A model generated the notes under the pieces. It was not told where the DNA came from. It saw nothing but the letters and a program-made list of their open reading frames with translations, and did not search any database. Source: Nitrospinota bacterium (lineage in GTDB: Bacteria > UBA8248). Taken from it: a DNA stretch of 45,051 bases. Made by a program: the position numbers and the translations under genes. Shown here in pieces: positions 847-45,051 of this stretch; the stretch's first letter is position 1; each line of letters starts with the position of its first letter. The stretch spans positions 1 to 45,051 of the forward strand of contig JAPPHK010000255.1 of the NCBI GenBank assembly GCA_028820795.1. The letters are read 5' to 3'.

Positions 847-2886
847 TTACACCCCCGCCATCTCGCAGGGGGCGTAGTGGGAAAAGCGCATGGTGTAGGT
901 GGCGCGGCCCTGGGTGGCGGATCGGAGAGAAGTTGCGTAGCCGAAAACCTTGGCGAGGGGTACGGAGGCGCGCACGACGCGCATGGGCGACGCACCGCCG
1001 CGCTCTTCCACGCCGGAGACTTTTCCGTCGCGCGCGTTGATGTCGCCGATGATCGCGCCCAGAAACTCCCCGGGCGCTACGACCTCTACCGACATGATAG
1101 GTTCCAGAAGCTGTCCACCCGCTGCGCGACAAGCTTCGGTGAACGCGTTTGCCGCCGCGATGGAGAATGCGGCCTCCGTGGCACGCTCGGCGTCGTAGTC
1201 CGCCTCGAGCAAAATGACAGCCACGTCTGTCATCTCATAACCAGCCATAGCGCCGCTCGACGCAGAAGCACGGAGCGAATCCTGGGCGGCAGCGATCAGA
1301 TTTTCAGGAACAGACGTATCGTCCAATACGCTTTCGCACGATACGCCTCCACCGGGTCTGGGCGCCACACCCACGCGCACCCTTGCGAACTGGGGCTCGC
1401 CCGCCAGCTCTCTATCGAAGGTGGACTCGGCCTCTGCTTCGTTCGCAAGAGTTTCTCGGTAGACTACACGGGGCGCACCGACACGAACATTTACACCGAA
1501 ATCTTCGTCGATTCGGCGCGTGAGCACCTCCAAATGAAGTTCGCCCATGCCGCTCATCACCGTCTGGCCGGATTCGGAATCCACCCTCACTTGAAACGTC
1601 GGGTCTTCCGCCTGGAGTTTCGCCAGAGTCTCGTTCAGCTTCTTGGTCCCTGTGGCGTCTCTGGGTTCTATCGCGACCGAGATGACGGGTTGGGGCGCGA
1701 GAATCGACTCGAAGGCTATCGGCTCTTTGCGGTCACAAAGGGTATCGCCCGTAACCGCCTCCTTCAGGCCGGCCGCCGCGACGATGTCCCCTGGACCCAC
1801 GGCGCCGATGCGCTCGCGCTTGTGGGAATACATTCTGAAAAGACGGGCGAATCGCTCACTATCTCCTCTCGCGGGATTCCACAAACTTTCGCCTACCCTG
1901 GCCGCGCCGCTATACACCCGCAAGTAGGTGAGCCGCCTGCCCCCATCGATTTGCACCTTGAAAACCAAAGCAGAAAAAGGCGCACCTTCTACGGGAGGAC
2001 GGGTGATGGGCTCATCCTCTTCTGGAGTGAAACCCGCCGTGGGCGGCGCATCCACCGGAGAAGGCAGATATTCCACCACGGCGTCCAGCAGGGGCTGCAC
2101 CCCTTTGTTCATCAGGGATGAACCGCAAAAAACGGGTACGAGTTCACCCGCAAGCACGGCGCGCCGCAAGCCCGCCTTGAGTGTTTCTGTGTCGACGGCG
2201 CGCCCTTCCAGATAAGCCTCCATCACGGACTCGTCATAATCCGCCACCGCCTCTATGATAGATTCCCTCAACTCGGTTGCTTTTTCCTTGAGTTCTCCGG
2301 GAGGTTCCCTCCGATGGAGTTCCCCCCCCTCCCAGGTGAGAAAATCACCGCTCAGCGCTTCCACCTGACCCGTATAATCCTCACTCTCTCCGTCTGGCCA
2401 GTGCATGAGCACGGGGTTGGCCCCTAATTTTTCGACCATCATTTCGACTGTTCTCTCGAAATCCGCCCCCAGGCGGTCCAGCTTGTTGATGAAGGCCAGC
2501 CGGGGCACGCTGAACTTGTCCGCCTGCCTCCAAACGGCTTCACTCTGCGGTTCGACGCCTTCCACCGCACTGAAGATTGCGATAGCGCCATCGAGCACAC
2601 GCAGGCTTCTTTCCACTTCGATCGTAAAATCCACGTGTCCAGGGGTATCGATGATGGTAATCTCATGACCCGCCCAAGTCGTGGTGATGGCCGCTGAGGT
2701 GATGGTGATGCCCCGCTCGCGCTCCTGGCTCATCCAGTCCATGGTGGCGGAGCCATCGTCCACCTCGCCGATCCGGTGCACGGCGCCCGAATAAAACAGC
2801 ATGCGCTCGGTGGTCGTCGTCTTTCCGGCGTCGATGTGCGAGATGATGCCTATGTTTCTTCTCATCTCGAGTGCGGGGCGCTTCAT
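847..2886 (-). CDS. fusA: Elongation factor G family GTPase (stand-alone paralogue, 679 aa)
   Basis: 'NIGIISHIDAGKTTTTERMLFYSG', 'DWMSQERERGITI', 'IIDTPGHVDF' and 'NKLDR' are G1-G4 motifs. The C-terminal 'PLAKVFGYATSLRSATQGRATYTMRFSHY' is typical of EF-G. Start chosen at ATG 2886 (MKRPALEMRRNIGI...), because the upstream part of the ORF is not EF-G-like. Confidence 0.93.
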   Translation of the reverse strand: MKRPALEMRRNIGIISHIDAGKTTTTERMLFYSGAVHRIGEVDDGSATMDWMSQERERGITITSAAITTTWAGHEITIIDTPGHVDFTIEVERSLRVLDGAIAIFSAVEGVEPQSEAVWRQADKFSVPRLAFINKLDRLGADFERTVEMMVEKLGANPVLMHWPDGESEDYTGQVEALSGDFLTWEGGELHRREPPGELKEKATELRESIIEAVADYDESVMEAYLEGRAVDTETLKAGLRRAVLAGELVPVFCGSSLMNKGVQPLLDAVVEYLPSPVDAPPTAGFTPEEDEPITRPPVEGAPFSALVFKVQIDGGRRLTYLRVYSGAARVGESLWNPARGDSERFARLFRMYSHKRERIGAVGPGDIVAAAGLKEAVTGDTLCDRKEPIAFESILAPQPVISVAIEPRDATGTKKLNETLAKLQAEDPTFQVRVDSESGQTVMSGMGELHLEVLTRRIDEDFGVNVRVGAPRVVYRETLANEAEAESTFDRELAGEPQFARVRVGVAPRPGGGVSCESVLDDTSVPENLIAAAQDSLRASASSGAMAGYEMTDVAVILLEADYDAERATEAAFSIAAANAFTEACRAAGGQLLEPIMSVEVVAPGEFLGAIIGDINARDGKVSGVEERGGASPMRVVRASVPLAKVFGYATSLRSATQGRATYTMRFSHYAPCEMAGV

Positions 2887-2961
2887 CGGAAAATCCTCTT
2901 TATGAGAAAAACTGAAGCGCAGATTACATTGGGAGAAAGAAGATGGGAAAGTCCAAGACGT

Positions 2962-2997
2962 AAAAAGTGGCGGCTTAAAGACAGCCGCCACTTTTTT
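2962..2997 (-). terminator. Rho-independent terminator downstream of csp; its symmetric A/T flanks would allow it to work in both directions
   Basis: Perfect 9-bp stem GTGGCGGCT (2967-2975) / AGCCGCCAC (2983-2991) with a 7-nt loop. It is flanked by AAAAA on one side and TTTTTT on the other. Confidence 0.8.
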
Positions 2998-4121: not shown

Positions 4122-5039
4122 ATGGACGAAAATCTTGACCCACAACTTTCAGAAAGTTCAAAAGGACCCACCGTGATCTTGAAAAATTTCTCGAAAAAAA
4201 TGCTCCACGGCACTTTTTCTCTCCTCATTTCCACATTTCTGCTCGCCGGATGCGCCACTGACCACGAAACGAAAACCGCTCGTGGCGAGGTGATCCGCGA
4301 ATGGTTCATTGAATTTCCCTGGGGGCGCGTCGAGACTTACGCCGTCTGGCCCCCTGAAAGAAGGCCTTCTCAGCAAGTACGCTACCCGGCAATTCTCCTC
4401 CTCCACGGAGCGGACGCTCGGGCCCAACGATTCAGACGAGCCATGCTGGCTCATGTGCATGATGGATTCATCATGATGAGCATTTCTCTGCCCGGGTTCG
4501 GCGCATCCACCGGGCCGGAAGATTTTGCAGGACCCAAAAGCATACAGGCCGCCCTTGGCGCAGTCCGTTATCTCGACGCCAGAGAGAGCGTCAGAAAAAA
4601 CGGAATCTTCGTCTACGGAATTGGACAAGGCGCTTCAACCGCCGCCCTCGCAGGAACGATGAGCACGAAGATTTCGGGCCTCATTCTTGAAAACGGATTT
4701 TATGACCTCGAGAAAACCTACCCGCTCTTATCGAAAAAACAGAAGAGCAAAATTCGCGCGCTGCTCGGCGGCACGTCCGCTCAAAATGAGGATGCTTTCC
4801 GAGAGCGCTCGCCCATCCGGGTGGCGGGCAAGATAAAAGCCCCGGTTCTGCTTCTGCACAGCCAAGGAGGTTCCTATCCGCTCAGCGGCGCAGAGGCTTT
4901 TCTAAGAGCCATCGAGGAAAAAGGCGGAATAGCGGAACTGCAGAGAATAAAAAACCAGGGCCCGTTCGAATCACTCACGCACCCCAACATCGCGAAACGG
5001 GTCATTCCCTTCATCAGGAAAATACTCAAAACGCGCTGA
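4122..5039 (+). CDS. Alpha/beta-hydrolase-fold lipoprotein (dienelactone hydrolase / prolyl-oligopeptidase-like), possibly catalytically inactive
   Basis: Lipobox 'LLAGC' follows a hydrophobic segment. 'AILLLHG' and 'PVLLLHS' strands are typical of the fold. An alternative start is ATG 4200. The nucleophile elbow reads G-I-G-Q-G (see findings). Confidence 0.75.
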   Translation: MDENLDPQLSESSKGPTVILKNFSKKMLHGTFSLLISTFLLAGCATDHETKTARGEVIREWFIEFPWGRVETYAVWPPERRPSQQVRYPAILLLHGADARAQRFRRAMLAHVHDGFIMMSISLPGFGASTGPEDFAGPKSIQAALGAVRYLDARESVRKNGIFVYGIGQGASTAALAGTMSTKISGLILENGFYDLEKTYPLLSKKQKSKIRALLGGTSAQNEDAFRERSPIRVAGKIKAPVLLLHSQGGSYPLSGAEAFLRAIEEKGGIAELQRIKNQGPFESLTHPNIAKRVIPFIRKILKTR

Positions 5040-20994: not shown

Positions 20995-21180
20995 GCCCGA
21001 AGACTCGAGGCCCATATCAGTAATGACCCCGCCTTGTGCCGTGTGAGGTTCGCTTTGAACCCAGCTTTCGCCAGGTGGGCGTCCACCTCCATGGCTTTAG
21101 GCCGAACTCCCCGAGAGGAATAGCTCACCACCGTGGATCAGGACTCCCGGTACAATAGTACTGGGTCAAAATGCTTTCCC
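20995..21180 (-). ncRNA. ssrS: Probable 6S RNA (ends approximate, +/- 20 nt)
   Basis: It lies in a 337-nt non-coding gap between zapA and the cyclo-ligase gene, the conserved zapA-ssrS-ygfA synteny. Minus-strand segments 'GGUGGUGAGC', 'GGCCUAAAGCC' and 'CCUGGCGAAAGCUGGGUUCAAAGCGAACC' parallel E. coli 6S 'GGUUGGUGAGC', 'AGCCUUAAAAC' and 'CCUUGAACCAAGGGUUCAAGGGUUACAGCC'. Confidence 0.65.
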
Positions 21181-21279
21181 CCATCACGAACACGGCAGGG
21201 TCAAAGCAAGTGAGCATTATGACACTAAAATCTGGGGATGAATACAGGAAAAACCTATTGCGTGGGAAGAAACTTCTGC

Positions 21280-21558
21280 TCAGCCCGCTTTTCTCACCAT
21301 CTCCAATAGAGAATCAGCGCGCTGCGAGAGGGTTTCCTCGCTTTGTTCATTCGCTTTTCTCTGCTCGAACAACTCATTGGCGATGTTCATCGAAGCCAGC
21401 AGAACGACCTTTATCGGATCATTCGACTGGCGTGAGACCTTGTGAATTTGAGAATCTACATATTCGGCCAATTGCAACGTGTAATCCGAATTAGCCGAAC
21501 TTCTCAGGTTCAGGGAATGACCAAATATCTCCACCACGAATTTATTCTCCCCGGCCAT
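21280..21558 (-). CDS. zapA: Cell division protein ZapA (92 aa)
   Basis: 'VVEIFGHSLNLRS......LQLAEYVD..I' and 'LLASMNIANELF' fit the ZapA pattern. ATG 21558 has SD AAGGAGA 6 nt upstream. Confidence 0.8.
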   Translation of the reverse strand: MAGENKFVVEIFGHSLNLRSSANSDYTLQLAEYVDSQIHKVSRQSNDPIKVVLLASMNIANELFEQRKANEQSEETLSQRADSLLEMVRKAG

Positions 21559-21601
21559 AAGCTGTCTCCTTATGCCGCTGACTTGCATATATTGCGACAA
21601 A

Positions 21602-21856
21602 CTACTCGATGTGCGTCAGAATCTTCTCCACGCGCTCTCGAACCTCGGCCTGCTCTTTTTGAAGCCGCGCGTATTCCGCCTGGCATTTCGCCAACTCCTC
21701 AGCCTGAGCGCGCACGGACTCGGAATCTGCGCGGGCCTCCTCTCTCAGCCTCTGGAGTTGCGACTCCAGTTCCGCCCGAGAACGCCTCAGGGAATCGCGT
21801 TCCTCCAAAAGATTCGCAAGCGCGGTTTCAAGAGCGTTTAATTTTTCTAAGACCAT
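21602..21856 (-). CDS. zapB: ZapB-like coiled-coil protein (84 aa)
   Basis: Uninterrupted heptad-rich coiled coil ('LEKLNALETALANLLEERDSLR...'), immediately upstream of zapA. The assignment rests on composition and synteny only. Confidence 0.55.
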   Translation of the reverse strand: MVLEKLNALETALANLLEERDSLRRSRAELESQLQRLREEARADSESVRAQAEELAKCQAEYARLQKEQAEVRERVEKILTHIE

Positions 21857-21951
21857 TCGGACACTCTTTCCACGGGCGTATGACAAGAAATGAGTTTCGA
21901 CGATGCGTGAAAATAATTCTAGGTTCGGAAAAAAGCGGTGTCAAGAAACCA

Positions 21952-24363
21952 TCACGAGCGAAGTCGCGCATTCAGGCGCGCGCCCAACGCCCCTACGATT
22001 CCATCGAACGCCACGCTCACCTGCTCATCTGTGAGCGTCGCTTCAGGGTGACGGAACACCAACGAATACGCAAGGCTCTTCTCCCCCGATGCCTTGAGCG
22101 CGGCATCCTGGTAGACGTCGAACAGATTTACCGACTCGAGCCAGTCTCCACCTGACTGGCGGATGATCGCCTCGATCTCCCCATTGGTCCGCTCGGCATC
22201 CACCACCACCGCGAGATCGCGCAACGAAGCCGGATATCTCGGCAAGGGCGTCAGACGGCGAGGGGCAGGGTCGATCTCGGCCAAAGCGGCGAGGTTTATC
22301 TCGAAAGCGGCCACGCCCGTCTCGATATCCCAGACGCCCAGCGCCTCTGGCGCCACCAAACCGACGTGGCCGATATTCATCTCGCCGACCAGAACCTTCG
22401 AAACCGCCGACGGCTCCCAACCCGGAACGGCGTCCGCCGGTGCGAACCGGAGGTTGTCCAGTCCCAAGGATTCCAGGAAACGCTCGAGCACTCCTTTTTG
22501 TTCCGACAAAGCTCCCGGAAGCGAGACACCGTCTTTAGACGCCGCGCTCCCGACAATGACGCCGGCCAGGCGCAATACCTGATCCGGCAAAGCCTCTCCA
22601 TTCACGGGATGAAACGAGCGCCCCAGCTCAAACAGGCGAACCTCGCCCACTCCGCGACTCAGGTTGTGCGCCACGTTCGCCAGCAAACCGGCGAGCAGCG
22701 TGGATCTGAGCACGTCCATCTCACCGCTCAAGGGATTGCGCAACTCCACCATTTGTTCATCCAGCCACCCCATACTTCGGAGAGCCTCTCTGCTGACGAA
22801 GCTGTAGTTGATGGCCTCGCTGAACCCGCCAGCCACCATGATGCGGCGCGCTTTCAGCTCCAGAGAGCGGGTGCGCGTCGGCCTGGCGGCGGGACTTTCC
22901 GAGATCGGCAGGGTTGCGGGAATGTTCTCATAGCCCACCCTTCTGCCCACCTCTTCGATGAGATCGATCTCGCGTTCGATGTCGGGCCGGAAAGTAGGGA
23001 CCTCGACACTGAAAACCCCGTCTCCAGTGTCATTCACGAGAAGCCCCAGTGATTCGAGGCTCTCCCTCACCCGTGCAGCATCAAGAGAAACGCCGAGCAG
23101 GCTCGACGCGCGCGTCACCCGTATCGGCACCTGCTTCGGAGCGATGGGCGCTGGATGCGCGTCCACGGCACCCCGGGCGACTGCGCCGCCCGCCGTCCGG
23201 CGGATGAATTCGGCGGCCAGGTCCGCCGCGCGAACTGTGCCCGAGGGATCCACCCCCCGCTCGAAGCGATACGACGCCTCCGTGGACATTCCAAGACGCC
23301 TGCGGGTGCGTCGGATGGTCTGGGGCGTAAAATAGGCGCTCTCCAAAAGAATGTCGCGGGTGTCGTCGCTCACCTCGGAGTAGAGCCCCCCCATCACGCC
23401 GCCGATGGCGACGGGTTTTTCGCCGTCACAAATCATGAGGTCCTCGTCGTCCATCTCGCGCTGCTGGCCGTCGAGCGTGGTGAACGGGCCGTCGCTCTCG
23501 GCCCACCTCCTCACGATAATCTTGTGCTCGGCGAGGCGGTGGAGGTCGAACGCATGGAGCGGCTGACCGAGTGAGAGCATCACATAGTTCGTCACGTCGA
23601 CCACGTTGTTGATCGGCCGCATACCTGCCGCCCGCAGGCGCCGCGCCATCCACGCTGGCGAGGGGCCGATCTCCACACCCTGGATAATGCGGGCAGCGTA
23701 GCGCGGGCATTTATCCGGATCCCATATCTCCACCGCGCAGACAGAAGCGGCGGATACGCTCTCGTCTTCTTGAATGGAAATTTCAGGGGTTCGCAAAGAG
23801 GTTCCCAAAAGGGCCGCCGCTTCGCGGGCCACGCCCAAAACGGAGAGGCAATCCGCGCGGTTGGGCGTAATCGAGATGTCGAAAATCACATCGTTAAGCC
23901 CCAGTATCTCCGCCGCGTCGCTCCCGATGGCGAGCTCGTTATCAAGCACCATGATGCCGCTGTGATCCGCACCCAGGCCGATTTCACGCTCCGAGCAGAT
24001 CATGCCCTCGCTCCGTTCGCCGCGAATCCGCGCAACTTCAACCTTCACCCCCCCGGGCATCCGCACCCCTGGGGTGGCCAGAACGACGCGCTGGCCAGCT
24101 GCGACGTTGGGCGCGCCGCACACCACGGAGCGTTCTCCAGCGCCATCGGTGACACGGCAGATTTTCAGCCTGTCCGCGTTGGGATGAGCCTCCACGGACA
24201 ACACCTCGGCCACCACCAGCCCGTCGAAAGACGCTTCGGGACGCTCGAGCGCCTCGACTTCCAGACCCGCGAGCAAAAGCCCGTTCGCGAGGCGCTCCGG
24301 CAACTCTGCGTCTTCCAAGTGCAGGTCAATATAATCGGCGAGCCATTCCAGGCTAATCCGCAT
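21952..24363 (-). CDS. pheT: Phenylalanine--tRNA ligase beta subunit
   Basis: 803 aa. N-terminal 'MRISLEWL.DY', tRNA-binding OB domain ('HPNADRLKICRV'), B3/4, B5 and FDX-ACB domains. It follows pheS. Confidence 0.97.
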   Translation of the reverse strand: MRISLEWLADYIDLHLEDAELPERLANGLLLAGLEVEALERPEASFDGLVVAEVLSVEAHPNADRLKICRVTDGAGERSVVCGAPNVAAGQRVVLATPGVRMPGGVKVEVARIRGERSEGMICSEREIGLGADHSGIMVLDNELAIGSDAAEILGLNDVIFDISITPNRADCLSVLGVAREAAALLGTSLRTPEISIQEDESVSAASVCAVEIWDPDKCPRYAARIIQGVEIGPSPAWMARRLRAAGMRPINNVVDVTNYVMLSLGQPLHAFDLHRLAEHKIIVRRWAESDGPFTTLDGQQREMDDEDLMICDGEKPVAIGGVMGGLYSEVSDDTRDILLESAYFTPQTIRRTRRRLGMSTEASYRFERGVDPSGTVRAADLAAEFIRRTAGGAVARGAVDAHPAPIAPKQVPIRVTRASSLLGVSLDAARVRESLESLGLLVNDTGDGVFSVEVPTFRPDIEREIDLIEEVGRRVGYENIPATLPISESPAARPTRTRSLELKARRIMVAGGFSEAINYSFVSREALRSMGWLDEQMVELRNPLSGEMDVLRSTLLAGLLANVAHNLSRGVGEVRLFELGRSFHPVNGEALPDQVLRLAGVIVGSAASKDGVSLPGALSEQKGVLERFLESLGLDNLRFAPADAVPGWEPSAVSKVLVGEMNIGHVGLVAPEALGVWDIETGVAAFEINLAALAEIDPAPRRLTPLPRYPASLRDLAVVVDAERTNGEIEAIIRQSGGDWLESVNLFDVYQDAALKASGEKSLAYSLVFRHPEATLTDEQVSVAFDGIVGALGARLNARLRS

Positions 24364-33152: not shown

Positions 33153-36926
<3,774 letters not shown>

Positions 36927-37204
36927 AAGCCGTCCCGAATCAAACGCTTAAAGGTTTGAATCCAACACCAAAGAGTGGTTATAAGCGATTTTGGGGCGCG
37001 AGAAAAGCGCAGAATTTGATGAGGGGATTTTGAGTGCGGCCGCGCGGCGCATGGAATACCGCTACTCCTTTAGTTGCGAGGGGGTATTCTCGTTTGTCGG
37101 CCCTTTAATACACATTCTCTTCACGCAAGCGGAAACGTTGCCTCGCAAGATAGGCGATCTTCAGGGGGGTGTTGGAAAAGCCCTCGTCAGGTCGCAATGG
37201 TTCT

Positions 37205-37649
37205 GTAGGGGTCGCATACATGCGACCCATGGCAGACGGCAAAAAAGCAGGGACGCATATATGCGTCCCCTACACTTGCGCCGCAGACAGGGCCGCCGTC
37301 ATCCCGTAGGGGCGGACCGATGTGTCCGCCCGCCTGTGATATTGGTCGCCAGAGAATTCACGCGGACAGGTCGCGACCTGTCCCTACAAAACCAACCCCC
37401 TGTCCCCTCTTGTCAGGGGGGTAAAACCGATACCTCCGGCGAGGGGTTTTTCAACAGGCCCAAACATGCGTCCCTTTGCTTTTGATCGTCATTCCGGCGA
37501 AAGCCGGAATCCATTCGCGGGTGCGGATGAATACACGGCGGCGTTCATTCCCCGCCGATGCGCGGGAACCCCGACGAAAGGCAAAAGGCGTAAAAAATGG
37601 ATTCCGTCGAACCCTCCCGCCTTGGTCGGCTCCGACACCGGAATGACGG
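37205..37649. repeat. Cluster of at least 7 different REP-like GC-rich hairpins (GTAGGG...CCCTAC type and ATTCCGG/CCGGAAT type)
   Basis: 37205-37228: GTAGGGGTCGCAT-AC-ATGCGACCC. 37249-37273: AGGGACGCATA/TATGCGTCCCCTAC. 37306-37331: GTAGGGGCGGAC-CGATGT-GTCCGCCC. 37364-37387: GGACAGGTCG/CGACCTGTCC-CTAC. 37396-37420: CCCCCTG..CAGGGGG. 37491-37510: ATTCCGGC-GAAA-GCCGGAAT. 37547-37568: TTCCCCGC..GCGCGGGAA. CGTCATTCCGG (37488-37498) is inverted at 37639-37649. Confidence 0.85.
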
Positions 37650-37676
37650 TGAACACTCTCGATGGGGTTTTTCCAA

Positions 37677-38486
37677 CTACCCCCCGCGCTTCACCTCTTC
37701 CTCGATGAAGGCGTAGGCGTTGTGGTCGTGGATGGACTCGAAATTCTCGACCTCCACCTGGAACCACCGGATGCGCTTGTCGTTTCTGAGCAGGAGGGCC
37801 GCCTCGCGCACCACGTCCTCCACGAAGCGGGGGTTGTCGAAAGCCGTCTCGGTGACGAACTTCTCGTCCTCGCGCTTCAGGATCGGATAGAGCGCGCAGC
37901 TTCCCGCGCTCTCGGCGACCTCGACGAGTTCCTCTATCCAGAACTCCCCGTCGAAGCGCACCTTGATGCGCACGTGCCCCCGCTGGTTGTGCGCGCCGCG
38001 CAGGCTGATCTCCTTGGAGCACGGACACAGGGTGGCGATTCGCACCATGATGCTGAGAACAAAGTCGTCCGCCGCGCCGGCGGAGGCCTCGAAGCCGCAT
38101 TCGAGGGCCATCAGCCCCTCCGCGCCCGTCACGGGGGCCGCCTTTTGCATGAAGTAGGGAAAGGTGACGGAGAAATGCGCCGTCTGGGCGTCCAGGCGCT
38201 CGCGGATCGTCTGCAGGAGCGAGGGCACGCTGTCCACGCCGATGGCGTCGGTGTGCTCGTTCAGCACCTCCAGGAAACGGCTCATGTGGGTGCCCTTGAA
38301 GTGGTGCGGCAGGTCCACATACATGTTCACGTTGCCGATGGTGTGCTGGGCGTCCTTCGCCCGGTCCTTCACCACGATGGGGTAGCGGATGTTCTTGACA
38401 CCCACCTTGTCTATCTTGACGTTGCGCTCATCGGAACTCGCCTGCACGTCGGCGAGGTCGGCCGGCTCCGTCGGGAGGCCTGACAT
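37677..38486 (-). CDS. folE2: GTP cyclohydrolase I type 2 (FolE2 / GCYH-IB)
   Basis: 'VGVKNIRYPI.V.D', 'HMSRF.EVL' and 'CPCSKEIS..GAHNQR' are diagnostic FolE2 motifs. Confidence 0.93.
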   Translation of the reverse strand: MSGLPTEPADLADVQASSDERNVKIDKVGVKNIRYPIVVKDRAKDAQHTIGNVNMYVDLPHHFKGTHMSRFLEVLNEHTDAIGVDSVPSLLQTIRERLDAQTAHFSVTFPYFMQKAAPVTGAEGLMALECGFEASAGAADDFVLSIMVRIATLCPCSKEISLRGAHNQRGHVRIKVRFDGEFWIEELVEVAESAGSCALYPILKREDEKFVTETAFDNPRFVEDVVREAALLLRNDKRIRWFQVEVENFESIHDHNAYAFIEEEVKRGG

Positions 38487-38604
38487 CGAATCTCATCCTT
38501 TCCGCTCTGCTTCGCAGAACACTGGTTCAGCGGTTCGTCTTTCGGTCTCAATCTTTTCGGCGCCGCCCCAAGCGCCGAACCGGAAAACTGCGGGGTACCG
38601 CGGT

Positions 38605-38958
38605 CTATCTCTCGGGCTGCTCCTGTCTGATGCGCTCGATCTTGGCCATTTTCTCCGAAACGGCCTCGCCCAAATCGATCCCCCGCGCATTGGCGTAGTT
38701 CATGACGGCGATCATGACATCCGCCGCCTCGTCCGTATAGGCCGCCAAGTCGATTTCGCGGCCCTTCCATTCCTTTTTCTCCAGGTTCGCGAGTTCGCCC
38801 GTCTCGCCCGCAAGTTCCAGGGCGAAAAACCGCGGTTCGCGCTCCGGAAACGCCTCTTCCTGATAGCGCGCGAATTCGCCTTGCAGGGCGCGCAGCCCCT
38901 CGTAGGAGCGCGGCAGCCTGGGAGCGTCCTCGCCATTCACCGGAATCGTCCCCTCCAC
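38605..38958 (-). CDS. MazG-like nucleotide pyrophosphohydrolase (small, single domain)
   Basis: 'LAGETGELAN' and 'EAADVMIAVMNYANARGIDLGEAV.EKM' are MazG EExxE/D-type helices. The listed start is GTG, so the exact start is uncertain. Confidence 0.7.
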   Translation of the reverse strand: MEGTIPVNGEDAPRLPRSYEGLRALQGEFARYQEEAFPEREPRFFALELAGETGELANLEKKEWKGREIDLAAYTDEAADVMIAVMNYANARGIDLGEAVSEKMAKIERIRQEQPER

Positions 38959-39171
38959 GCAAGGCCGGGAGCCGGAAAATTACCGCCGGCGCGCCCTTCG
39001 AGCGCGAGGGCAAAGTTTCTCACCCAGAATCATGGCCGTCAATCGGCGGGCGTGAATCTCGATTGACGCAGGATGCGCCAGATTCTACTCTCTCCGAAAA
39101 GGTCATCATCACTTCTACAACCGAGCGGGCGCCAAGACGCCCCGAAAGCATTCAAACGGAGGGAAGCACCC

Positions 39172-40167
39172 TTGCCCAACATCGATCTGCATCACCACAT
39201 CTACATCCCGGAGGCGGAAGCGCTTGCCGCCAAAGAGCGCGAAAGACGCCCCCAGCACGCCGACAGCTTCGAGGGGTTCTTCCCGCCCGTCTCCTCGCGC
39301 TACAACGCGAAGATGACGGAGGAGAACTGGGCGGTGCAACTCGCAGACGCCGAGCGCAAGCTGAGCGACATGAAGGCGGACAGGCTCGAGATGGCGCTGG
39401 CCTCCCCGCCGCCGCCCACGTTCTATTACTGGATCGGAGGTACTGCGGGCGAGGAGATCATCCAAATCCAGAACGACGGCGTGGTCGATTTCTGCAACCA
39501 AAACGCCGCGCACTTCCGGGGGCTTTGCAACCTGCCCATGCAGAACGGGGGCGAGGCCGCAGCAGCAGAATTAGAGCGCGCGATGGGGCGGGGCCTGCTC
39601 GGCTGCATCATCTCGGATCGCATCGGCTCCCACGCGCTGGACGAGCCCCAGTACGAGGAATTCTGGGCGGCGGCGGAGCGGCTCGGCGCGCTGGTGTTCA
39701 TCCACCCCGATTTCGCGGACTTAAAGGCGCTGTTCCCCTACTACATGGCGAACTGCATCGGCAACCCGCTGTCCACCACGATCGCGGCGACGAGGCTCAT
39801 CCTCTCGGGCCACTTCGAGCGCTACCCGAACCTCCAGCTCCTGCTCGCCCACGCGGGCGGAAACCTCCCCTGGGCGGTCGGGCGCATCCAGCACTGCTGG
39901 AACGTGCGGCCGGAAACCAAGGTCCACACGCCGCATCCGCCGAGGCACTATTTCAAGAACCTCTATTTCGACGTCATCACCTTCAACCCCTCGGCCCTCA
40001 AGTGGATGGTTGAGGAGGTGGGGGCCGACCGCGTCGTGTGCGGCACGGACTACCCCTACGACATGATGCAGGGGCGCGTCGTGGATTACGTGGAAGGAGC
40101 GGGCCTCACCGAAGAGGCGCAGGCGAAAATCCTGCGCGAGACGCCGGCGAGGCTCATGAAACTTTAA
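39172..40167 (+). CDS. Amidohydrolase_2 (ACMSD/decarboxylase-type) family metal-dependent hydrolase
   Basis: 'IDLHHH', 'FIHP', 'LLAHAGG' and 'GTDYPYD' are the metal ligands of the family. TTG 39172 is preferred because GGAGGG lies 8 nt upstream. The ORF is open from ATG 39073. Confidence 0.85.
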   Translation: MPNIDLHHHIYIPEAEALAAKERERRPQHADSFEGFFPPVSSRYNAKMTEENWAVQLADAERKLSDMKADRLEMALASPPPPTFYYWIGGTAGEEIIQIQNDGVVDFCNQNAAHFRGLCNLPMQNGGEAAAAELERAMGRGLLGCIISDRIGSHALDEPQYEEFWAAAERLGALVFIHPDFADLKALFPYYMANCIGNPLSTTIAATRLILSGHFERYPNLQLLLAHAGGNLPWAVGRIQHCWNVRPETKVHTPHPPRHYFKNLYFDVITFNPSALKWMVEEVGADRVVCGTDYPYDMMQGRVVDYVEGAGLTEEAQAKILRETPARLMKL

Positions 40168-40262
40168 GACGTACGCACAGAATTCAGGAGGCATCGAACA
40201 ACGGCAGGAAGCTCATCCGAACAAGATGATTCGCCGAAACCATTTCGAGCGGAGGAATCGAC

Positions 40263-41435
40263 ATGTACCTCGCCACGAGTGACCTCATACTTCCCACCAC
40301 CATCACCGGCTCCCTGCCCCGGCCCGCCTGGTTCCGCCAGAACATCGGGCGCAGGACGTTCCGTGAAGCGATGATCGACGCGGAATTCCGCGAGCAGTAT
40401 CTCGACAACGTCTCCTGCGTCATCCGCGATCAGGAGCGCGCTGGGCTCGACATCGTGACCGACGGCGACGCGCGCTTCGACACGAACGTGGGCGGTCGCG
40501 ACTGGGTGGGCTACATCGTCGACAGGCTGAGCGGCTTTTCGGGCCATGAGACATCGAGGAGCCACGCCACCTGGGGCGGGTCCGTGCCGGGCGAGATCAT
40601 GTTCGAGGTGCTCGAAGCCCGGATGCTGCCCAAGGTCACCTCGAAAGTCGGCGAAGGCCCCCTCGAATACGCGCAGATGTGGCGCAGCGCGCAGGCGATG
40701 ACGGACAAGCCGCTCAAGTTCGGCTCCATCAGCGCGGATTGCGTGGAGTCCATCGTCTCGAACGAGTTCTATGACGACAGGCGCGAGCTCTGCCTCGACC
40801 TGTGCGAGATCATGCACGCCGAATTCCACCGCCTGGCGGACGCGGGCTGCCAGATTTTCCAGGTGGAAGAACCCTGGGTGCACCGCTTCGATTTCCACGC
40901 CGAGGATTCGGAGATGTCGATGGAGTTCTACGTCGAGGCGTTCAACAGGAGCGTGGCGGGCCTGAGGGACAAGCTGGAACTGTGGTGCCACACCTGCTGG
41001 GGCAACCCGGCCCAGCAGCGGTTCTACGAGTCATCCAAGAGCTACGCGCCCGCCCTGGAATACATGAACGAGCTGGACGTGGACGTGCTCACCTTCGAGT
41101 GCGCGAGCACGGGCGGGATGGACCTGGGCGAGATCGGAAAGCGCATCACCAGACCCAAGGTGGCCATCGGCGTCATCAACCACCGGGGGCTGCAGGTGGA
41201 GCGCCCCGCAGAGGTGGCCGCCCTCATCCGCAAGGCGCTCGAGACGATTCCCGCCGAACGGCTGTGCATCTCGACCGACTGCGGCTTCGGGCGCGAGGGC
41301 ATGAGCCGCCGCCACGCGTTCTACAAGATGGTGGCCCTCTCAAGGGGGACGAACATCGTGAAGAAAGAACTCGGCCTGCCCGAAACCTACATCCCCGCGA
41401 GCGACGGCGCGTTCACGCTGAGTGACGAGGATTAG
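40263..41435 (+). CDS. Single-domain MetE-like (cobalamin-independent methionine synthase C-terminal domain / UROD-MetE superfamily) zinc methyltransferase
   Basis: 'LPTTITGSLPRP.W', 'DIVTDGD', 'QVEEP', 'WCHTCWGN' (His-x-Cys) and 'ISTDCGFG' (Cys), so the zinc ligands are retained. SD GGAGGA upstream. Confidence 0.85.
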   Translation: MYLATSDLILPTTITGSLPRPAWFRQNIGRRTFREAMIDAEFREQYLDNVSCVIRDQERAGLDIVTDGDARFDTNVGGRDWVGYIVDRLSGFSGHETSRSHATWGGSVPGEIMFEVLEARMLPKVTSKVGEGPLEYAQMWRSAQAMTDKPLKFGSISADCVESIVSNEFYDDRRELCLDLCEIMHAEFHRLADAGCQIFQVEEPWVHRFDFHAEDSEMSMEFYVEAFNRSVAGLRDKLELWCHTCWGNPAQQRFYESSKSYAPALEYMNELDVDVLTFECASTGGMDLGEIGKRITRPKVAIGVINHRGLQVERPAEVAALIRKALETIPAERLCISTDCGFGREGMSRRHAFYKMVALSRGTNIVKKELGLPETYIPASDGAFTLSDED

Positions 41436-41436
41436 G
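41417..41436 (+). repeat. Left copy of a perfect 20-bp direct repeat, GCTGAGTGACGAGGATTAGG
   Basis: Identical 20-mer at 44837-44856. The copies diverge immediately on both sides. This copy holds the last codons and the TAG of the MetE-like gene. Confidence 0.95.
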
Positions 41437-41456
41437 GGCGGAGTCGCTTTAGAGTG

Positions 41457-41484
41457 GTAGGGACAGGTCGCAACCCGTCCCTAC
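41457..41484. repeat. REP-like hairpin, same family as 37364-37387
   Basis: GTAGGGACAGGTCGCAACCCGTCCCTAC followed by AAA, compared with GGACAGGTCGCGACCTGTCCCTAC followed by AAA in the metH-folE2 spacer. Confidence 0.85.
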
Positions 41485-41564
41485 AAAGCAGCATCGCCCC
41501 TTCTCGGCGAAAATGGCTCACGTGAAATGTGCTATAGTTTCGGTAAAGCGGGAAGGAGGCCGCT

Positions 41565-41828
41565 ATGAAACCGACGAGAGAACAAAAAGAGCGGGAAATC
41601 GACGACAACCTCGAATTCTTCCTGGCGGAGCTTCCCCGCCTCAAGCAGCAGCACTTCGGCAAATTCGCGCTTCTCAGGAACAAGGAGCTGGTCGCGGTTT
41701 TCGACACGGCCGAGGATGCGCAGACCGCGGGCGCCCGATTTTTTAAGGACGGGCTCTTTTCGATCCAGAAAATCGACGACACGCCCGCCAATCTGGGCTC
41801 CTATTCCTATGCCGTGCATCTGGGGTAA
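41565..41828 (+). CDS. Small hypothetical protein (87 aa), first gene of a two-gene overlapping module
   Basis: SD GGAAGGAGG lies 5 nt upstream of ATG 41565. Host-like GC. The 3' end overlaps the next ORF's ATG (41809) by 20 nt. Confidence 0.65.
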   Translation: MKPTREQKEREIDDNLEFFLAELPRLKQQHFGKFALLRNKELVAVFDTAEDAQTAGARFFKDGLFSIQKIDDTPANLGSYSYAVHLG

Positions 41829-41997
41829 GCACGACAGAAACCAGGTGTTTCTGGACGTCAAGATTTTGTCGCTGGAGGATGTCGTTCATCTGCGGGCCGG
41901 AACAGGCGAGAAAACCCTACGCCCCTTCAAGGCGCTGGTGGACAAACCTATTGTGCATAGATTTTTATCTTATCTCTCTTCGAGAAGTGTTTTTTAG
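41809..41997 (+). pseudogene. Truncated retropepsin-like (clan AA aspartic protease-like) ORF, interrupted right after '...FKALVD'
   Basis: 'MPCIWGKHDRNQVFLDVKIL....RPFKALVD' fits the N-terminus of small bacterial retropepsin-like proteins up to the point where D-T/S-G-A is expected. From about 41944 the composition becomes AT-rich and the frame reads unrelated 'KPIVHRFLSYLSSRSVF*'. Confidence 0.5.
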
Positions 41998-42019
41998 GGC
42001 AGTGGATCAAAGTTTAAAA

Positions 42020-42445
42020 TTAGGTGGGATCAAACGTGAATATATCTGCCATGGATAGCGCACGTCGAAATTCTTTTTCACCTGATTTATCATCCAAATC
42101 TTTAGTAATTTCTAAATTGATATGAGCATACGCCCATTTTTCCCAAGGTTCTTTTATATCATCTGGACGCCATACGATTTGAATGCAGAACGCAAACTTT
42201 TCCTTCACCTTTTCTACGATGATCAGATAATCTTCCGCTTTGCAGTGTGCCTGCCTAGAATCGTAAAACTCCTCAATTTGCAGTTCGACCATTTCTACAT
42301 CATTCTCTTCCAGCTTAGTTACACTCCAGGCAGATAGTGTTCTTTTATTGAATTTGAACGCACTAGCCCTAGGTCTGGATTCTGCGTCACTCCAGTCGTC
42401 TGGCCGAATGAATCTACACAGGATTTCTTGCAGAGGGACTTTCAT
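42020..42445 (-). CDS. Operon gene C: unknown protein, 141 aa
   Basis: ATG 42445 lies 3 nt after the TAA of gene B. AT-rich codon usage. No motif I can assign. Confidence 0.75.
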   Translation of the reverse strand: MKVPLQEILCRFIRPDDWSDAESRPRASAFKFNKRTLSAWSVTKLEENDVEMVELQIEEFYDSRQAHCKAEDYLIIVEKVKEKFAFCIQIVWRPDDIKEPWEKWAYAHINLEITKDLDDKSGEKEFRRALSMADIFTFDPT

Positions 42446-42448
42446 TTC

Positions 42449-43084
42449 TTATTGTTTTAATATCTCAATAAATTCGCTGGCCGTTGCGTCCATCATTCGA
42501 TCTAAGAATTTGTTTTCAGAATCGTAAATGCTCATATCTATTTTCCCACACACTTCCATTTCAGCCATGATTAAGCGACCATCTCGCAATCTAAAATCAA
42601 AAGAAAGTTCTCCGTCAAAATCCATTACCATATCTGGGTGTTCAACCGATTCGATCATTGCCTTGGCGATTCTAATTGCATTTTCAACGATCTCATTAGA
42701 AGGTTTATTGCCTTCGACACCATTCCGAAATTTAAACAGTTCATCCCGGATCTTATTGTTTGGAACAGACATTATTTGATTTATGTTCTCTTCAATGCCT
42801 GGAAATCGTATTGATATTGAGGCGCACTCATTGGAGTCAACGACATAAACTATTTTGGGTTCCGGGAGAAAGAATCCATGCTGTCTGCGGTCATCCAAGT
42901 TGGGACTAACTGTAAAAATGCACCATCCCCTAGAAGAATCCTTGGAGAACACCATCGGTGTCGCTCTAGATCTGTTGTTCCACCGATGGTGTTCTCCAAG
43001 GATTCTTTCTTGTGGTGAATTGTGCGATTCCCTTATGAAATTTGCGGTATCTTGTATATGTTTATTTGGGGCGGTCAGGGCCAT
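42449..43084 (-). CDS. Operon gene B: unknown protein, 211 aa
   Basis: ATG 43084 (a TTG at 43087 is also in frame) lies 23 nt inside the 3' end of gene A, with GGAG 9 nt upstream. No motif I can assign. Confidence 0.75.
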   Translation of the reverse strand: MALTAPNKHIQDTANFIRESHNSPQERILGEHHRWNNRSRATPMVFSKDSSRGWCIFTVSPNLDDRRQHGFFLPEPKIVYVVDSNECASISIRFPGIEENINQIMSVPNNKIRDELFKFRNGVEGNKPSNEIVENAIRIAKAMIESVEHPDMVMDFDGELSFDFRLRDGRLIMAEMEVCGKIDMSIYDSENKFLDRMMDATASEFIEILKQ

Positions 43085-43742
43085 CAATAAGCTCCACTAA
43101 ATGATATGTCTGTTGAAGAATATTTTGTAAATATCTTAAAATTTCAGGCTCTTCAGGAAAACGAGCTTCATTTACGTGGTGATTAACAGACATGAAAACT
43201 GTTGATGTGGTTCGGTCATTTAATCTTGGCTCAATTCTCACGCCCAAATTATTTGTAGCGTCTTTTTTGAGCGTGAATCTGCCTGCGCCTTCAATCAGTT
43301 CCCCTTCTTGGGGGCCGGAGAAGAGAGGCGAATAAAGGCGACTTGCAATGTATTCCATAGCGGTTTTCCCACTATCTTGTTCGTAGGAAATATCAACGTT
43401 GAATCCAAAGGCATTCGGGGTTACATCTAAATTTAGACTCAGTACTGCTTGGCGGGCAATTTGCACAAATCGAGGCAAGAAATCTTTGTGTGGGTAATCA
43501 ATAAGTATGCGAGTGATTTTAGGATTCGATGAAGTGGCAATAGTTATACGTTCTTTGGGCAAGGAAAACATTTTTTCATTAGGCGATCCTATGTTCCCCA
43601 AGGTCCCCAAGGAATCGCCCAGTACAATAATATCAGTACTTAATGCCTTCGATAATTCTTCGATTAATCGCATTTCTTGCGATAGCTGAATGTCGACAAA
43701 AGCAACATCCATTCTTATGATATCTTCGATACGTGTTCCCAT
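43062..43742 (-). CDS. Operon gene A: unknown protein, 226 aa
   Basis: ATG 43742 is preceded by consensus SD AAGGAG (43757-43752) with a 9-nt spacer. AT-rich codon usage. There is a weak, unverified resemblance to the uncharacterised TIGR04255-type family. Confidence 0.78.
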   Translation of the reverse strand: MGTRIEDIIRMDVAFVDIQLSQEMRLIEELSKALSTDIIVLGDSLGTLGNIGSPNEKMFSLPKERITIATSSNPKITRILIDYPHKDFLPRFVQIARQAVLSLNLDVTPNAFGFNVDISYEQDSGKTAMEYIASRLYSPLFSGPQEGELIEGAGRFTLKKDATNNLGVRIEPRLNDRTTSTVFMSVNHHVNEARFPEEPEILRYLQNILQQTYHLVELIDGPDRPK

Positions 43743-43786
43743 TCTTTTCTTCTCCTTGGGTAGGTGTAATTTCCCTTCCCCTGCAC

Positions 43787-43816
43787 AGGCTATCCACCTA
43801 ATAAAAATTATGTCAA
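43787..43816 (-). promoter_or_regulatory. Putative promoter of the A-B-C operon
   Basis: The minus strand reads TTGACA (43816-43811), an 18-nt AT-rich spacer, then TAGCCT (43792-43787), about 45 nt upstream of ATG 43742. Confidence 0.4.
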
Positions 43817-44167
43817 CCAGAATAAATTGTGGTGGACCCGAAGCGTTGTATTGCCATTTTAACCGTAGCCTGTTTTCTCATCGTCATATCCTACCATGCA
43901 GGCGCTCACGGAGGAGGTCTTAATCAGGTGGTAGATTAGTTTGAAAATCAAGGCGGCGGATCCCGCGAAACCAATCCGCATATATACAATATAAATTTTA
44001 TTGCTCATTTTCACAACTTAACGTGATATAAATCTTGCCATTAATCCCAAGACCCAACCAAAAGAACAAATATAATTTTACCCCGAACCAGTGGGAGCAA
44101 ATCGCAATTTAATGTCAATGACAGTCAAAAAAGTTAACTGAATAGGTAAAAGAGAAGGCCTTCAATC

Positions 44168-44206
44168 GCTCGCCACATGCGGTTTCGTAGTCCGCATGTG
44201 GCGAGC
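44168..44206. other. Perfect 15-bp GC-rich inverted repeat (hairpin) inside AT-rich non-coding DNA
   Basis: GCTCGCCACATGCGG (44168-44182), a 9-nt loop, then CCGCATGTGGCGAGC (44192-44206). On the minus strand the palindrome GAAGGCCTTC and TCTTTT follow. Confidence 0.8.
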
Positions 44207-44836
44207 ACCCCATAAAAACGTCCGTAGTGCATCCTTTCGTCTCTAGTATTTGCATTACTGTAAATTTTACCAATAATGGATATGTATATAATTCCCTAAA
44301 TCTTTTCAAAAAACTTGCAGATTTTTTTCACAAAAACTTATATTATCTCCAGCAATACAGAAGAAAGAAAAAAATCTTCGCAGTATACAATCCGATTAGA
44401 AGTATTCTTTAGTAACTCTGTTGTACGCTGAAGAGATTCCTCTAATTATTGTTAGTCAAGCATTGTCATAACAATGCAGACGAGCATTGCAGCGCGATGC
44501 TTTAGCATCTTACGTCAATCGTTTTGACGCAAAAATGAAATAGAATTTTTCTAGTCTTCTCCATTTCAGGTGCAGTATGAAGCGTTGTGACAGTAAAAGC
44601 CAAAAAGAGAAGGAAAGAATTCATCGACAAAGCTGTTAGCTTTGAGAAGCGAAGCTTTAATAAAGAAGGATGAAATCTGGCACACTCTTTCCATTACCAA
44701 AGACAAAGAAATGGGTGTTCGGGGCTGGAGTGCGCCTTTCGCCACTGCTCAGTGGCACAGAAAGAACCGGGCGGTGATTTCCTCATGTCTCGCCTTAAAC
44801 GGCAAGAGCGGGACGAGAGTCGAATTGATTATCCTT

Positions 44837-44856
44837 GCTGAGTGACGAGGATTAGG
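44837..44856 (+). repeat. Right copy of the perfect 20-bp direct repeat
   Basis: Identical to 41417-41436. It contains the TAA stop (complement of 44852-44854) of the ftsH-like gene. Confidence 0.95.
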
Positions 44857-45051
44857 AAACCGAGTCTCCCTCCCGCGCCTCCACCACGCCGAGCGCGGCG
44901 CGCAGTTCGTCCCCGCCGATGGTCTCCTGCTCGAGCAGGCGCGCGGTGAGGGTTTCGAGGTCGTCGCGCCTTTCGGTCAAAATCTCCGTCGCGCGCGCAT
45001 AGGCGCCGTCCAGTATCTTCTCCACCTCCTCGTCCACCTCGCGCTGGGTCG
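44852..45051 (-). CDS. ftsH: C-terminal end of ATP-dependent zinc metalloprotease FtsH (partial; continues beyond the right window edge)
   Basis: 'EVDEEVEKILDGAYARATEILTERRDDLETLTARLLEQETIGGDEL' matches the conserved C-terminal helices of FtsH. The frame is open to base 45051. Confidence 0.75.
   Translation of the reverse strand, partial: TQREVDEEVEKILDGAYARATEILTERRDDLETLTARLLEQETIGGDELRAALGVVEAREGDSVS

Follow-up and report, generated by a model that had tools for sequence, protein, structure and literature searches.

In integrase islands, the attL and attR sites are direct repeats of tens of base pairs (bp) which rebuild the end of the invaded gene and enclose DNA of foreign composition, while the empty site holds a single copy; att cores are typically of such length and lie at gene 3' ends. 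Repetitive extragenic palindromic (REP) elements are hairpins of the GTAG...CTAC type in the spacer past a gene end, different REP-like hairpins occupying the same spot among strains. In variable islets, conserved flanks enclose unrelated cargo, often of low GC content or of nuclease or ATPase type, with truncated genes at the breakpoints, short duplicated fragments of the upstream gene left downstream and no dedicated recombinase; for cassette displacement in the effector-immunity arrays of the Vibrio cholerae type VI secretion system, illegitimate recombination facilitated by homology was put forward, and orphan modules of the Rhs and contact-dependent inhibition (CDI) systems have been discussed (PMC5361080). 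These traits recur, system by system, at the locus considered here, the convergent junction of a MetE-like gene and ftsH in a 45,051-nt stretch, hereafter the window, from a Nitrospinota bacterium (assembly GCA_028820795.1, contig JAPPHK010000255.1), where a perfect direct repeat of 20 nt, GCTGAGTGACGAGGATTAGG, brackets 3.4 kb of composite DNA. Our favoured explanation, to which we give a probability of about 60%, is an old insertion that duplicated the junction and was followed by turnover of the cargo through illegitimate recombination, the two 20-mers being the core of a duplication that once measured 46 bp or more.

The 20-mer occurs twice on the + strand (41417-41436 and 44837-44856) and is the sole perfect direct repeat of 17 nt or more across the window, which contains no other match to it with up to three mismatches. 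Chance is ruled out, with 0.00 matches expected in 100 shuffles, in agreement with a first-pass annotation made from the sequence alone. That annotation had also assigned the two copies to the ends of two convergent genes, and the list of open reading frames (ORFs) and Pfam confirm this: the left copy contains the final codons (LSDED) and the TAG of the MetE-like gene, while the right copy contains the TAA of ftsH (complement of 44852-44854) and 2 nt of its last codon. The further statement that the flanks differ at once on both sides is valid upstream, where the two copies have unlike neighbours, but fails downstream, where the left copy continues into an ancestral ftsH tail. The same arrangement was recovered by different assemblers, probably from the same sample, since a Logan contig (SRR10996927_32469) reproduces window 41310-44924 at 100% and covers both repeats and both GC/AT transitions, and an ENA scaffold matches window 36266-45051 at 99.83%; its 15 mismatches all fall within 39351-40793 and so outside the insert. 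At the level of assemblies, three concordant versions, all apparently of one sample, make an artefact unlikely.

Exact scans with the 20-mer found five stretches, all of them orthologous loci of Nitrospinota type, and further loci, numbered with the prefix L, came from the contexts of homologues of ORF87, a small gene of 87 codons which precedes a retropepsin-like aspartic protease gene within the interval (together, the module). At flank identities of 92-98%, the MetE-like/ftsH junction exists in seven states with different cargo or none.

State i, L001: empty; one 20-mer, with the MetE TAG and the ftsH TAA overlapping in GATTAGG.
State ii, L002 and L003: a filler of 215 bp that contains REP-like hairpins and an inverted repeat of 15 bp; the right repeat, CTGAGTGA-TTAGGG, is decayed.
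State iii, L004, L005 and L010-L014: REP, ORF87 and full 146-aa protease (0.9 kb) between imperfect 47-bp junction repeats (81% identity, 17 nt exact).
State iv, L019: a different hairpin and the module; no right repeat; altered ftsH tail.
State v, L015: the module and an intact HNH gene; no right repeat.
State vi, L016: the module and a low-GC gene of AAA-ATPase-like type; no right repeat.
State vii, the window: hairpin, ORF87, truncated protease, low-GC block and HNH remnant between the 20-mers.

State i is the empty site which the first-pass annotation had predicted, with the MetE-like gene on one side of a single 20-mer and ftsH on the other, and its compact junction with overlapping stop codons is the one obtained on paper by deleting one repeat and the interval from the window. 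Among the states that bear the module, three of five have no right repeat whatsoever, and the left breakpoints fall, according to the state, at +2, +3, +4 or +11 nt past the 20-mer. The relatives form two groups by their MetE-like genes, namely the window with L001 (94.4%, the closest relative by this measure) and L002, L003, L010 and others (97-98%), with about 92.7% between the groups; the window gene itself is 92.6-94.4% identical to the orthologues of L001, L002, L003, L010, L012 and L014. Each group has members with and members without the module, a distribution which fits an old insertion with later losses, as far as these comparisons go. A short segment of ftsH places L015 nearest to L001 (95.5%) and the window (93.8%). 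Since the right repeat of L003 and the spacer upstream of it are homologous to those of L010, L003 descends from a module-bearing state by deletion inside a duplication that already existed. The filler of L002 and L003 (L003 approximately 4196-4411) contains two REP-like hairpins besides the inverted repeat GGGGGTTGTTGAAAA/TTTTCAACAACCCCC, and ftsH stops differently in these two loci, after ..EARSEGGC.

The window carries the following features at the junction.

40263..41435, + strand: MetE-like gene (cobalamin-independent methionine synthase family), from the ORF list and Pfam PF01717 (Meth_synt_2, E = 2.4e-23).
41402..41447, no strand: ancestral duplication of the junction (46 bp or more), left copy, from blastn and pairwise alignments to the right copy of L010 and to L001.
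41457..41484, no strand: REP-like hairpin GTAGGGAC-12 nt-GTCCCTAC, GTAG...CTAC type, from a pattern search.
41565..41828, + strand: ORF87, intact 87-aa protein, first gene of the two-gene module; relatives encode proteins 89-97% identical to it at this locus.
41809..41997, + strand: truncated retropepsin-like aspartic protease gene, from tblastn with the L010 protease as query, which aligned over residues 1-45 only (67% identity).
41945..44659, - strand: low-GC block, three ORFs and then about 0.9 kb without ORFs, from composition and the ORF list.
44660..44835, + strand: frameshifted remnant of an HNH gene (176 bp, 49.7% GC), from tblastn, blastn and DNA alignment.
44837..44856, no strand: right 20-mer, remainder of the right-hand junction copy, from comparison with the 47-nt right copy of L010.
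44852..45051, - strand: 3' end of ftsH (Peptidase_M41 C-terminus, Pfam PF01434), which runs past the window end; a full 611-aa FtsH stands at the same place in L010-L014.

The interval is thus composite, and the 3.4 kb is not one element. Its left part (41437-41944, 56.7% GC) is DNA native to the clade, with the hairpin, ORF87 and the cut protease gene, and the low-GC DNA (39.6% GC against 62.8% in the flank) begins inside that protease gene, roughly 0.5 kb beyond the left repeat. As set by DNA comparison with L015 and L010, the homology of the protease stops at 41944, directly before the catalytic D-T-G (..FKALVD and TGAS on the two sides of the breakpoint), and the frame continues into foreign sequence, while the full-length proteases of relatives match PF13975/PF13650. 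At the other end, the remnant corresponds to approximately residues 98-156 of a 316-aa protein with an HNH domain, which is intact at this position in L015; tblastn aligns DFLMSRLKRQERDESRIDYP with NFLVSRLKRQQKAKSRIDYP (E = 2.4e-4) together with an upstream segment in another frame, and blastn gives 79% over 58 nt. The remnant terminates exactly where the right 20-mer starts, the continuing HNH sequence of L015 showing a 10/14 similarity to the 20-mer. The junction behaves as a variable islet, in that conserved flanks hold different cargo or none in close relatives, and the breakpoints lie within genes (ALVD/TG on the left, the HNH remnant at the 20-mer on the right) with microhomology at most. 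It differs from the arrays mentioned above in that the flanks are convergent genes of housekeeping type which share their stop codons, so that the duplicated fragment restores the end of the second gene, and in that the cargo is no toxin or immunity series.

The repeat itself was once longer than 20 bp, because the old ftsH tail follows the left copy: GGCGGAGTCGC (41437-41447), directly after the left 20-mer, matches the ftsH tail of the empty-site relative L001 at 10/11 nt and also matches the sequence after the right repeat of L010. The stretch 41402-41447 accordingly consists of the last 35 nt of MetE with its stop (the 390-aa protein ends ...TLSDED-TAG within the left repeat) and an 11-nt relic of the old ftsH tail, and it aligns with the right repeat of L004/L005 at 93.6% over 47 columns in blastn. 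Because it aligns both to the right repeat of L004 and to the tail of L001, the original duplication would have included at least the last 35 nt of MetE and some 11 nt of ftsH. The right junction copy of the window lacks its first 15 nt, in the place of which stands the HNH remnant, and its own tail, AAACCGAGTC, has a weak similarity to the ancestral GGCGGAGTCGC. The left copy of L010 is without the ftsH relic, which is explicable by a deletion between two TAGGG motifs. Since the low-GC DNA starts inside a gene, the HNH junction abuts the right copy, the breakpoints vary and right repeats are missing in several states, we take the 20-mer to be the truncated relic of an earlier duplication, and not the crossover core of the present insert. 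The repeat would pre-date the foreign DNA and have been trimmed by it.

The simplest history would be a single old insertion with junction duplication, followed by diversification, gain of cargo and internal deletions. In the ancestor of the clade, a block of approximately 0.9 kb with the REP-like hairpin, ORF87 and the protease gene would have entered the stop-sharing junction (..GATTAGG..), and since the insertion left a copy of the junction on either side, neither gene lost its own 3' end. This first duplication could have arisen through a circle that bore the junction and was inserted in Campbell fashion or by an integrase, by a long staggered break with fill-in, or by one-sided homologous capture; any event that duplicated the shared stop-codon region would be favoured by selection. 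The interval would then have served as a place of cargo exchange, in which, in the window genome, the protease gene gave way, from the catalytic DTG onward, to a low-GC block of 2.7 kb, the HNH-type gene that formerly adjoined ftsH shrank to its 176-bp remnant, and the same or another rearrangement cut the right junction copy to 20 bp. These later steps would be illegitimate or homology-facilitated recombination, with one end in a conserved flank and the other joined without homology, rather than site-specific integration at the repeat, because the foreign DNA starts in mid-gene, a remnant of a native gene lies at its right, the breakpoints vary and a recombinase is absent from every state. 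In this view the interval holds no autonomous mobile element today, and the only probable activity of the repeats would be recombination between them, giving a precise deletion and a compact junction as in the closest relative. The lineage of L001 may have arrived at its empty state by such a precise loss, or may have retained or re-imported an empty allele.

Several observations weigh against this history. Five close relatives and several short contigs are the basis for the order of events. The right 20-mer is perfect, although the adjoining 13 nt of the ftsH tail are much diverged and the two copies of L010 differ at 2/20 positions; drift might be expected in an old and partly unconstrained copy, and its perfection therefore hints at a more recent event, whether a gene conversion or a recombination involving an empty-site allele, or else at a true crossover boundary directly after GATTAGG. 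The breakpoints of the different states, variable as they are, cluster within a few nucleotides after this same motif. Likewise, a copy of the module in an Alphaproteobacteria metagenome-assembled genome (MAG), L017, is flanked by a 22-bp repeat, which suggests a specific insertion mechanism and not an accident.

The best surviving alternative, which we nevertheless consider unlikely, is that an integrase-type element, either an island or a prophage, entered with an attP core of approximately 46 bp and then decayed, losing the integrase and most genes, leaving relics of attL and attR and an addiction-like two-gene module, and receiving cargo later. The first-pass annotation had likewise read the repeat as the signature of a site-specific or target-duplicating (attL/attR-like) insertion, and its non-randomness and the existence of an empty site lend this some support: the direct repeats equal the single-copy site of the unoccupied relative L001, their length of 20-47 bp and their position at a gene 3' end are those of att cores, the empty state nests among filled relatives as excision would give, and the module copy in another phylum again has its 22-bp repeat. 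The other part of that reading, a single element ending at the repeats, does not agree with the anatomy, for the foreign DNA is not bounded by them and, with left ends at +2, +3, +4 and +11 nt and a block starting mid-gene at 41945, the crossover point is not constant. No recognisable tyrosine or serine recombinase is encoded by the interval ORFs or by the cargo of relatives, so that none of the seven states (0/7) has one: searched against Pfam, PADLOC, PHROGs and NCBIfam, the ORFs of 41437-44836 matched neither an integrase nor a transposase or excisionase, as had been noted at first inspection, and a recombinase was equally absent from the cargo of relatives, as scanned with Pfam, PHROGs and NCBIfam, and from the called genes of L010-L016. 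The smallest repeat-bounded unit, that of the relatives, is only the 0.9-kb two-gene module, and no attP-bearing phage, plasmid or other contig has the 17-mer or the 20-mer outside the locus, the five stretches being all orthologous. One viral contig did match the 17-mer and, since its flanks are unrelated, the match is taken as chance. A dif/Xer-type site, as used by integrative mobile elements exploiting Xer (IMEX), was set aside because the 20-mer, by inspection, has no dyad symmetry, and an insertion sequence (IS) or transposon was rejected, since the two ends of the interval, like those of the low-GC block, are not paired by an inverted repeat and no transposase family is matched.

A second alternative, distinctly less probable than decay of an integrated element, would make the ORF87-retropepsin pair itself a small selfish or mobile cassette that targets gene junctions and produces target duplications of 20-50 bp by an unrecognised or trans-acting mechanism, the 20-mer being the remnant of such a footprint; if true, this would be a new kind of selfish cassette, with target duplications and no recognisable recombinase. 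The distribution of the module is sporadic, a profile search having given 140 homologues of ORF87, nearly all in singleton clusters and in unrelated contexts and phyla. In L017, the ORF86-protease module lies in the spacer between divergent genes, between perfect 22-bp direct repeats, ATCGGTCTTGGCCGGCGGTGGG, at 262-283 and 1416-1437, with a partial third copy at 1342-1359. Flanking direct repeats were significant in two of eight independent contexts (L010, 26.5 against a null maximum of 20; L017, 22 against 14.5), but were lacking in the other six, and flanking repeats as a general property of the module were dropped. Also contrary to an active cassette, neither protein resembles a nuclease or recombinase, no copies of the module were found in the phage and plasmid collections, and by inspection L010 and L017 have no terminal sequences in common. 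An assembly chimera, in which low-GC DNA of another organism would have been joined at a shared k-mer, is scarcely credible: the sharp change in GC, the confinement of the block to one sample and the end of the contig 195 bp beyond the right repeat would suit it, but three assemblies, including a Logan contig of unitig type (k=31), follow the same path over both repeats and both composition boundaries, a 20-mer falls short of the k used, no repeat marks the left boundary, and on its right the low-GC DNA passes gradually into an HNH remnant with a homologue at the same locus in a relative.

We return to an old junction-duplicating insertion with cargo turnover as the preferred explanation. The locus then provides a natural example, preserved in multiple states, of how convergent genes that share their stop codons may tolerate insertions by duplication of the junction, and of how the resulting gap may pass through repeated exchange and decay of cargo. 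It also advises caution, since a perfect direct repeat is not necessarily the att site of the DNA now found between its copies. The junction is a new example of known genome plasticity and leaves the current understanding of mobile DNA unchanged. The by-products of the analysis are uncharacterised, namely the module of a small protein and a retropepsin-like protease, which is the lead worth following, a domain family of approximately 100 aa, and a three-gene block of which one protein has no homologue in a search of 5.8 billion proteins, in a setting of Nitrospinota metagenomes of sponge-associated type.

ORF87 is succeeded by a retropepsin-like ORF (PF13975/PF13650) in all the contexts examined, that ORF being truncated in the window and in L032-L034. 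The stop of ORF87 and the start of the protease gene share 20 nt (41809-41828), and the overlap recurs across phyla in L010, L017, L018, L021, L024 and L026, as two frames of one DNA, ...(Y/H)A(V/M)HLG-stop (in the window ...YAVHLG-stop) and MPCIWG...; its conservation suggests translational coupling or possibly a recoding site. In L032-L034, beside genes of the IS21 family, the ORF87-type gene is intact and the protease is truncated after approximately 65 residues. An intact small gene with a truncated protease, there as in the window, would fit a relation of antidote and toxin, to judge from gene integrity. The AlphaFold2 (AF2) model of ORF87 has a mean predicted local distance difference test (pLDDT) score of 79 and a helix-beta-beta-alpha-beta order, with no match among PDB folds in Foldseek; the protein has no match in Pfam, PHROG, NCBIfam or PADLOC. 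Nothing relevant was found in the literature on bacterial modules of a retropepsin and a small protein.

The REP-like hairpin next to the module had been put forward in the first-pass annotation as a sign that the left part is of host type or of long residence, a view that is borne out by relatives with the same hairpin and ORF87 at the locus. The same type of hairpin stands at this locus in L004, L010 and L015, an extra copy lies in L005 at 694-715, and related hairpins occur at other places in the contigs of L001 and L003. In the window, GTCCCTAC occurs 4 times against 0.46 expected. A REP element would be a GTAG-headed imperfect palindrome with many extragenic copies per genome; the 45-kb window has the full hairpin in a single copy, and no gene for a REP-associated tyrosine transposase (RAYT) was seen. 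No target duplication by REP elements is known.

The low-GC block has three tightly packed minus-strand ORFs, of 141 aa (42020-42445), 212 aa (42449-43087) and 226 aa (43062-43742), the chance of such open frames at its composition being 6e-5 to 1.5e-7 each. The 226-aa protein retrieved the query alone from the 5.8 billion proteins. The C-terminal approximately 100 aa of the 212-aa protein (42449-42770) fall in a family without annotation, of which 172 representatives were retrieved at E<=1e-3; one named member of the family is from a Chloroflexota MAG; the domain mostly forms the C-terminus of proteins of 110-280 aa and is modelled by AF2 with a pLDDT above 93, with no Pfam family and no PDB fold match in Foldseek. 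As to function, searches of Pfam, PHROGs, NCBIfam and PDB sequences, and AF2 models compared with the PDB by Foldseek, gave nothing usable for the cargo or ORF87. A defensive role of the cargo was considered on a marginal PADLOC match of the 141-aa ORF (E = 0.0017), which we do not take as evidence, and no ORF of the interval matched a defence family convincingly. The DNA of the block has no match in the phage or plasmid collections, no donor appeared in the searched collections, and among these the block was found in this sample only.

A perfect 27-bp inverted repeat with a 20-nt loop (42934-42960/42981-43007) lies in the 5' part of the 212-aa ORF, just past the stop of the 226-aa gene; it could be an intercistronic regulatory hairpin, or else the true start of the 212-aa gene could lie further downstream. 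Rfam gave only spurious matches of miRNA-precursor-like type on this hairpin, and a non-coding RNA in the insert was rejected. Within the AT-rich, ORF-free 43743-44659 there is a lone GC-rich perfect stem of 15 bp (GCTCGCCACATGCGG/CCGCATGTGGCGAGC, 9-nt loop) at 44168-44206, followed by no T-run on either strand.

The last codons of ftsH differ in nearly every strain (GDSVS, GDSAP, GDSAL, SEGGC, SGG, GG and others) in a comparison of the 3' ends from the window (44855-44869), L001, L003, L010, L015, L016 and L019, and the C-terminal tail appears to be freely remodelled by rearrangements at the junction.

Elsewhere in the window, a plus-strand ORF of 276 aa at 4-834, with a GC content at third codon positions (GC3) of 0.32 and no Pfam match, converges on an EF-G-type gene (847-2991, minus strand) and may be another low-GC islet at a convergent junction. 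At 21171-22155, ORFs of 107 and 237 aa with GC3 of 0.41-0.48 and no Pfam match stand amid high-GC coding DNA. Finally, of the 15 positions at which window and ENA scaffold differ, 12 cluster in 150 bp (39351-39501) within an Amidohydro_2 gene, which looks like a short tract of strain-level recombination or a variable patch.

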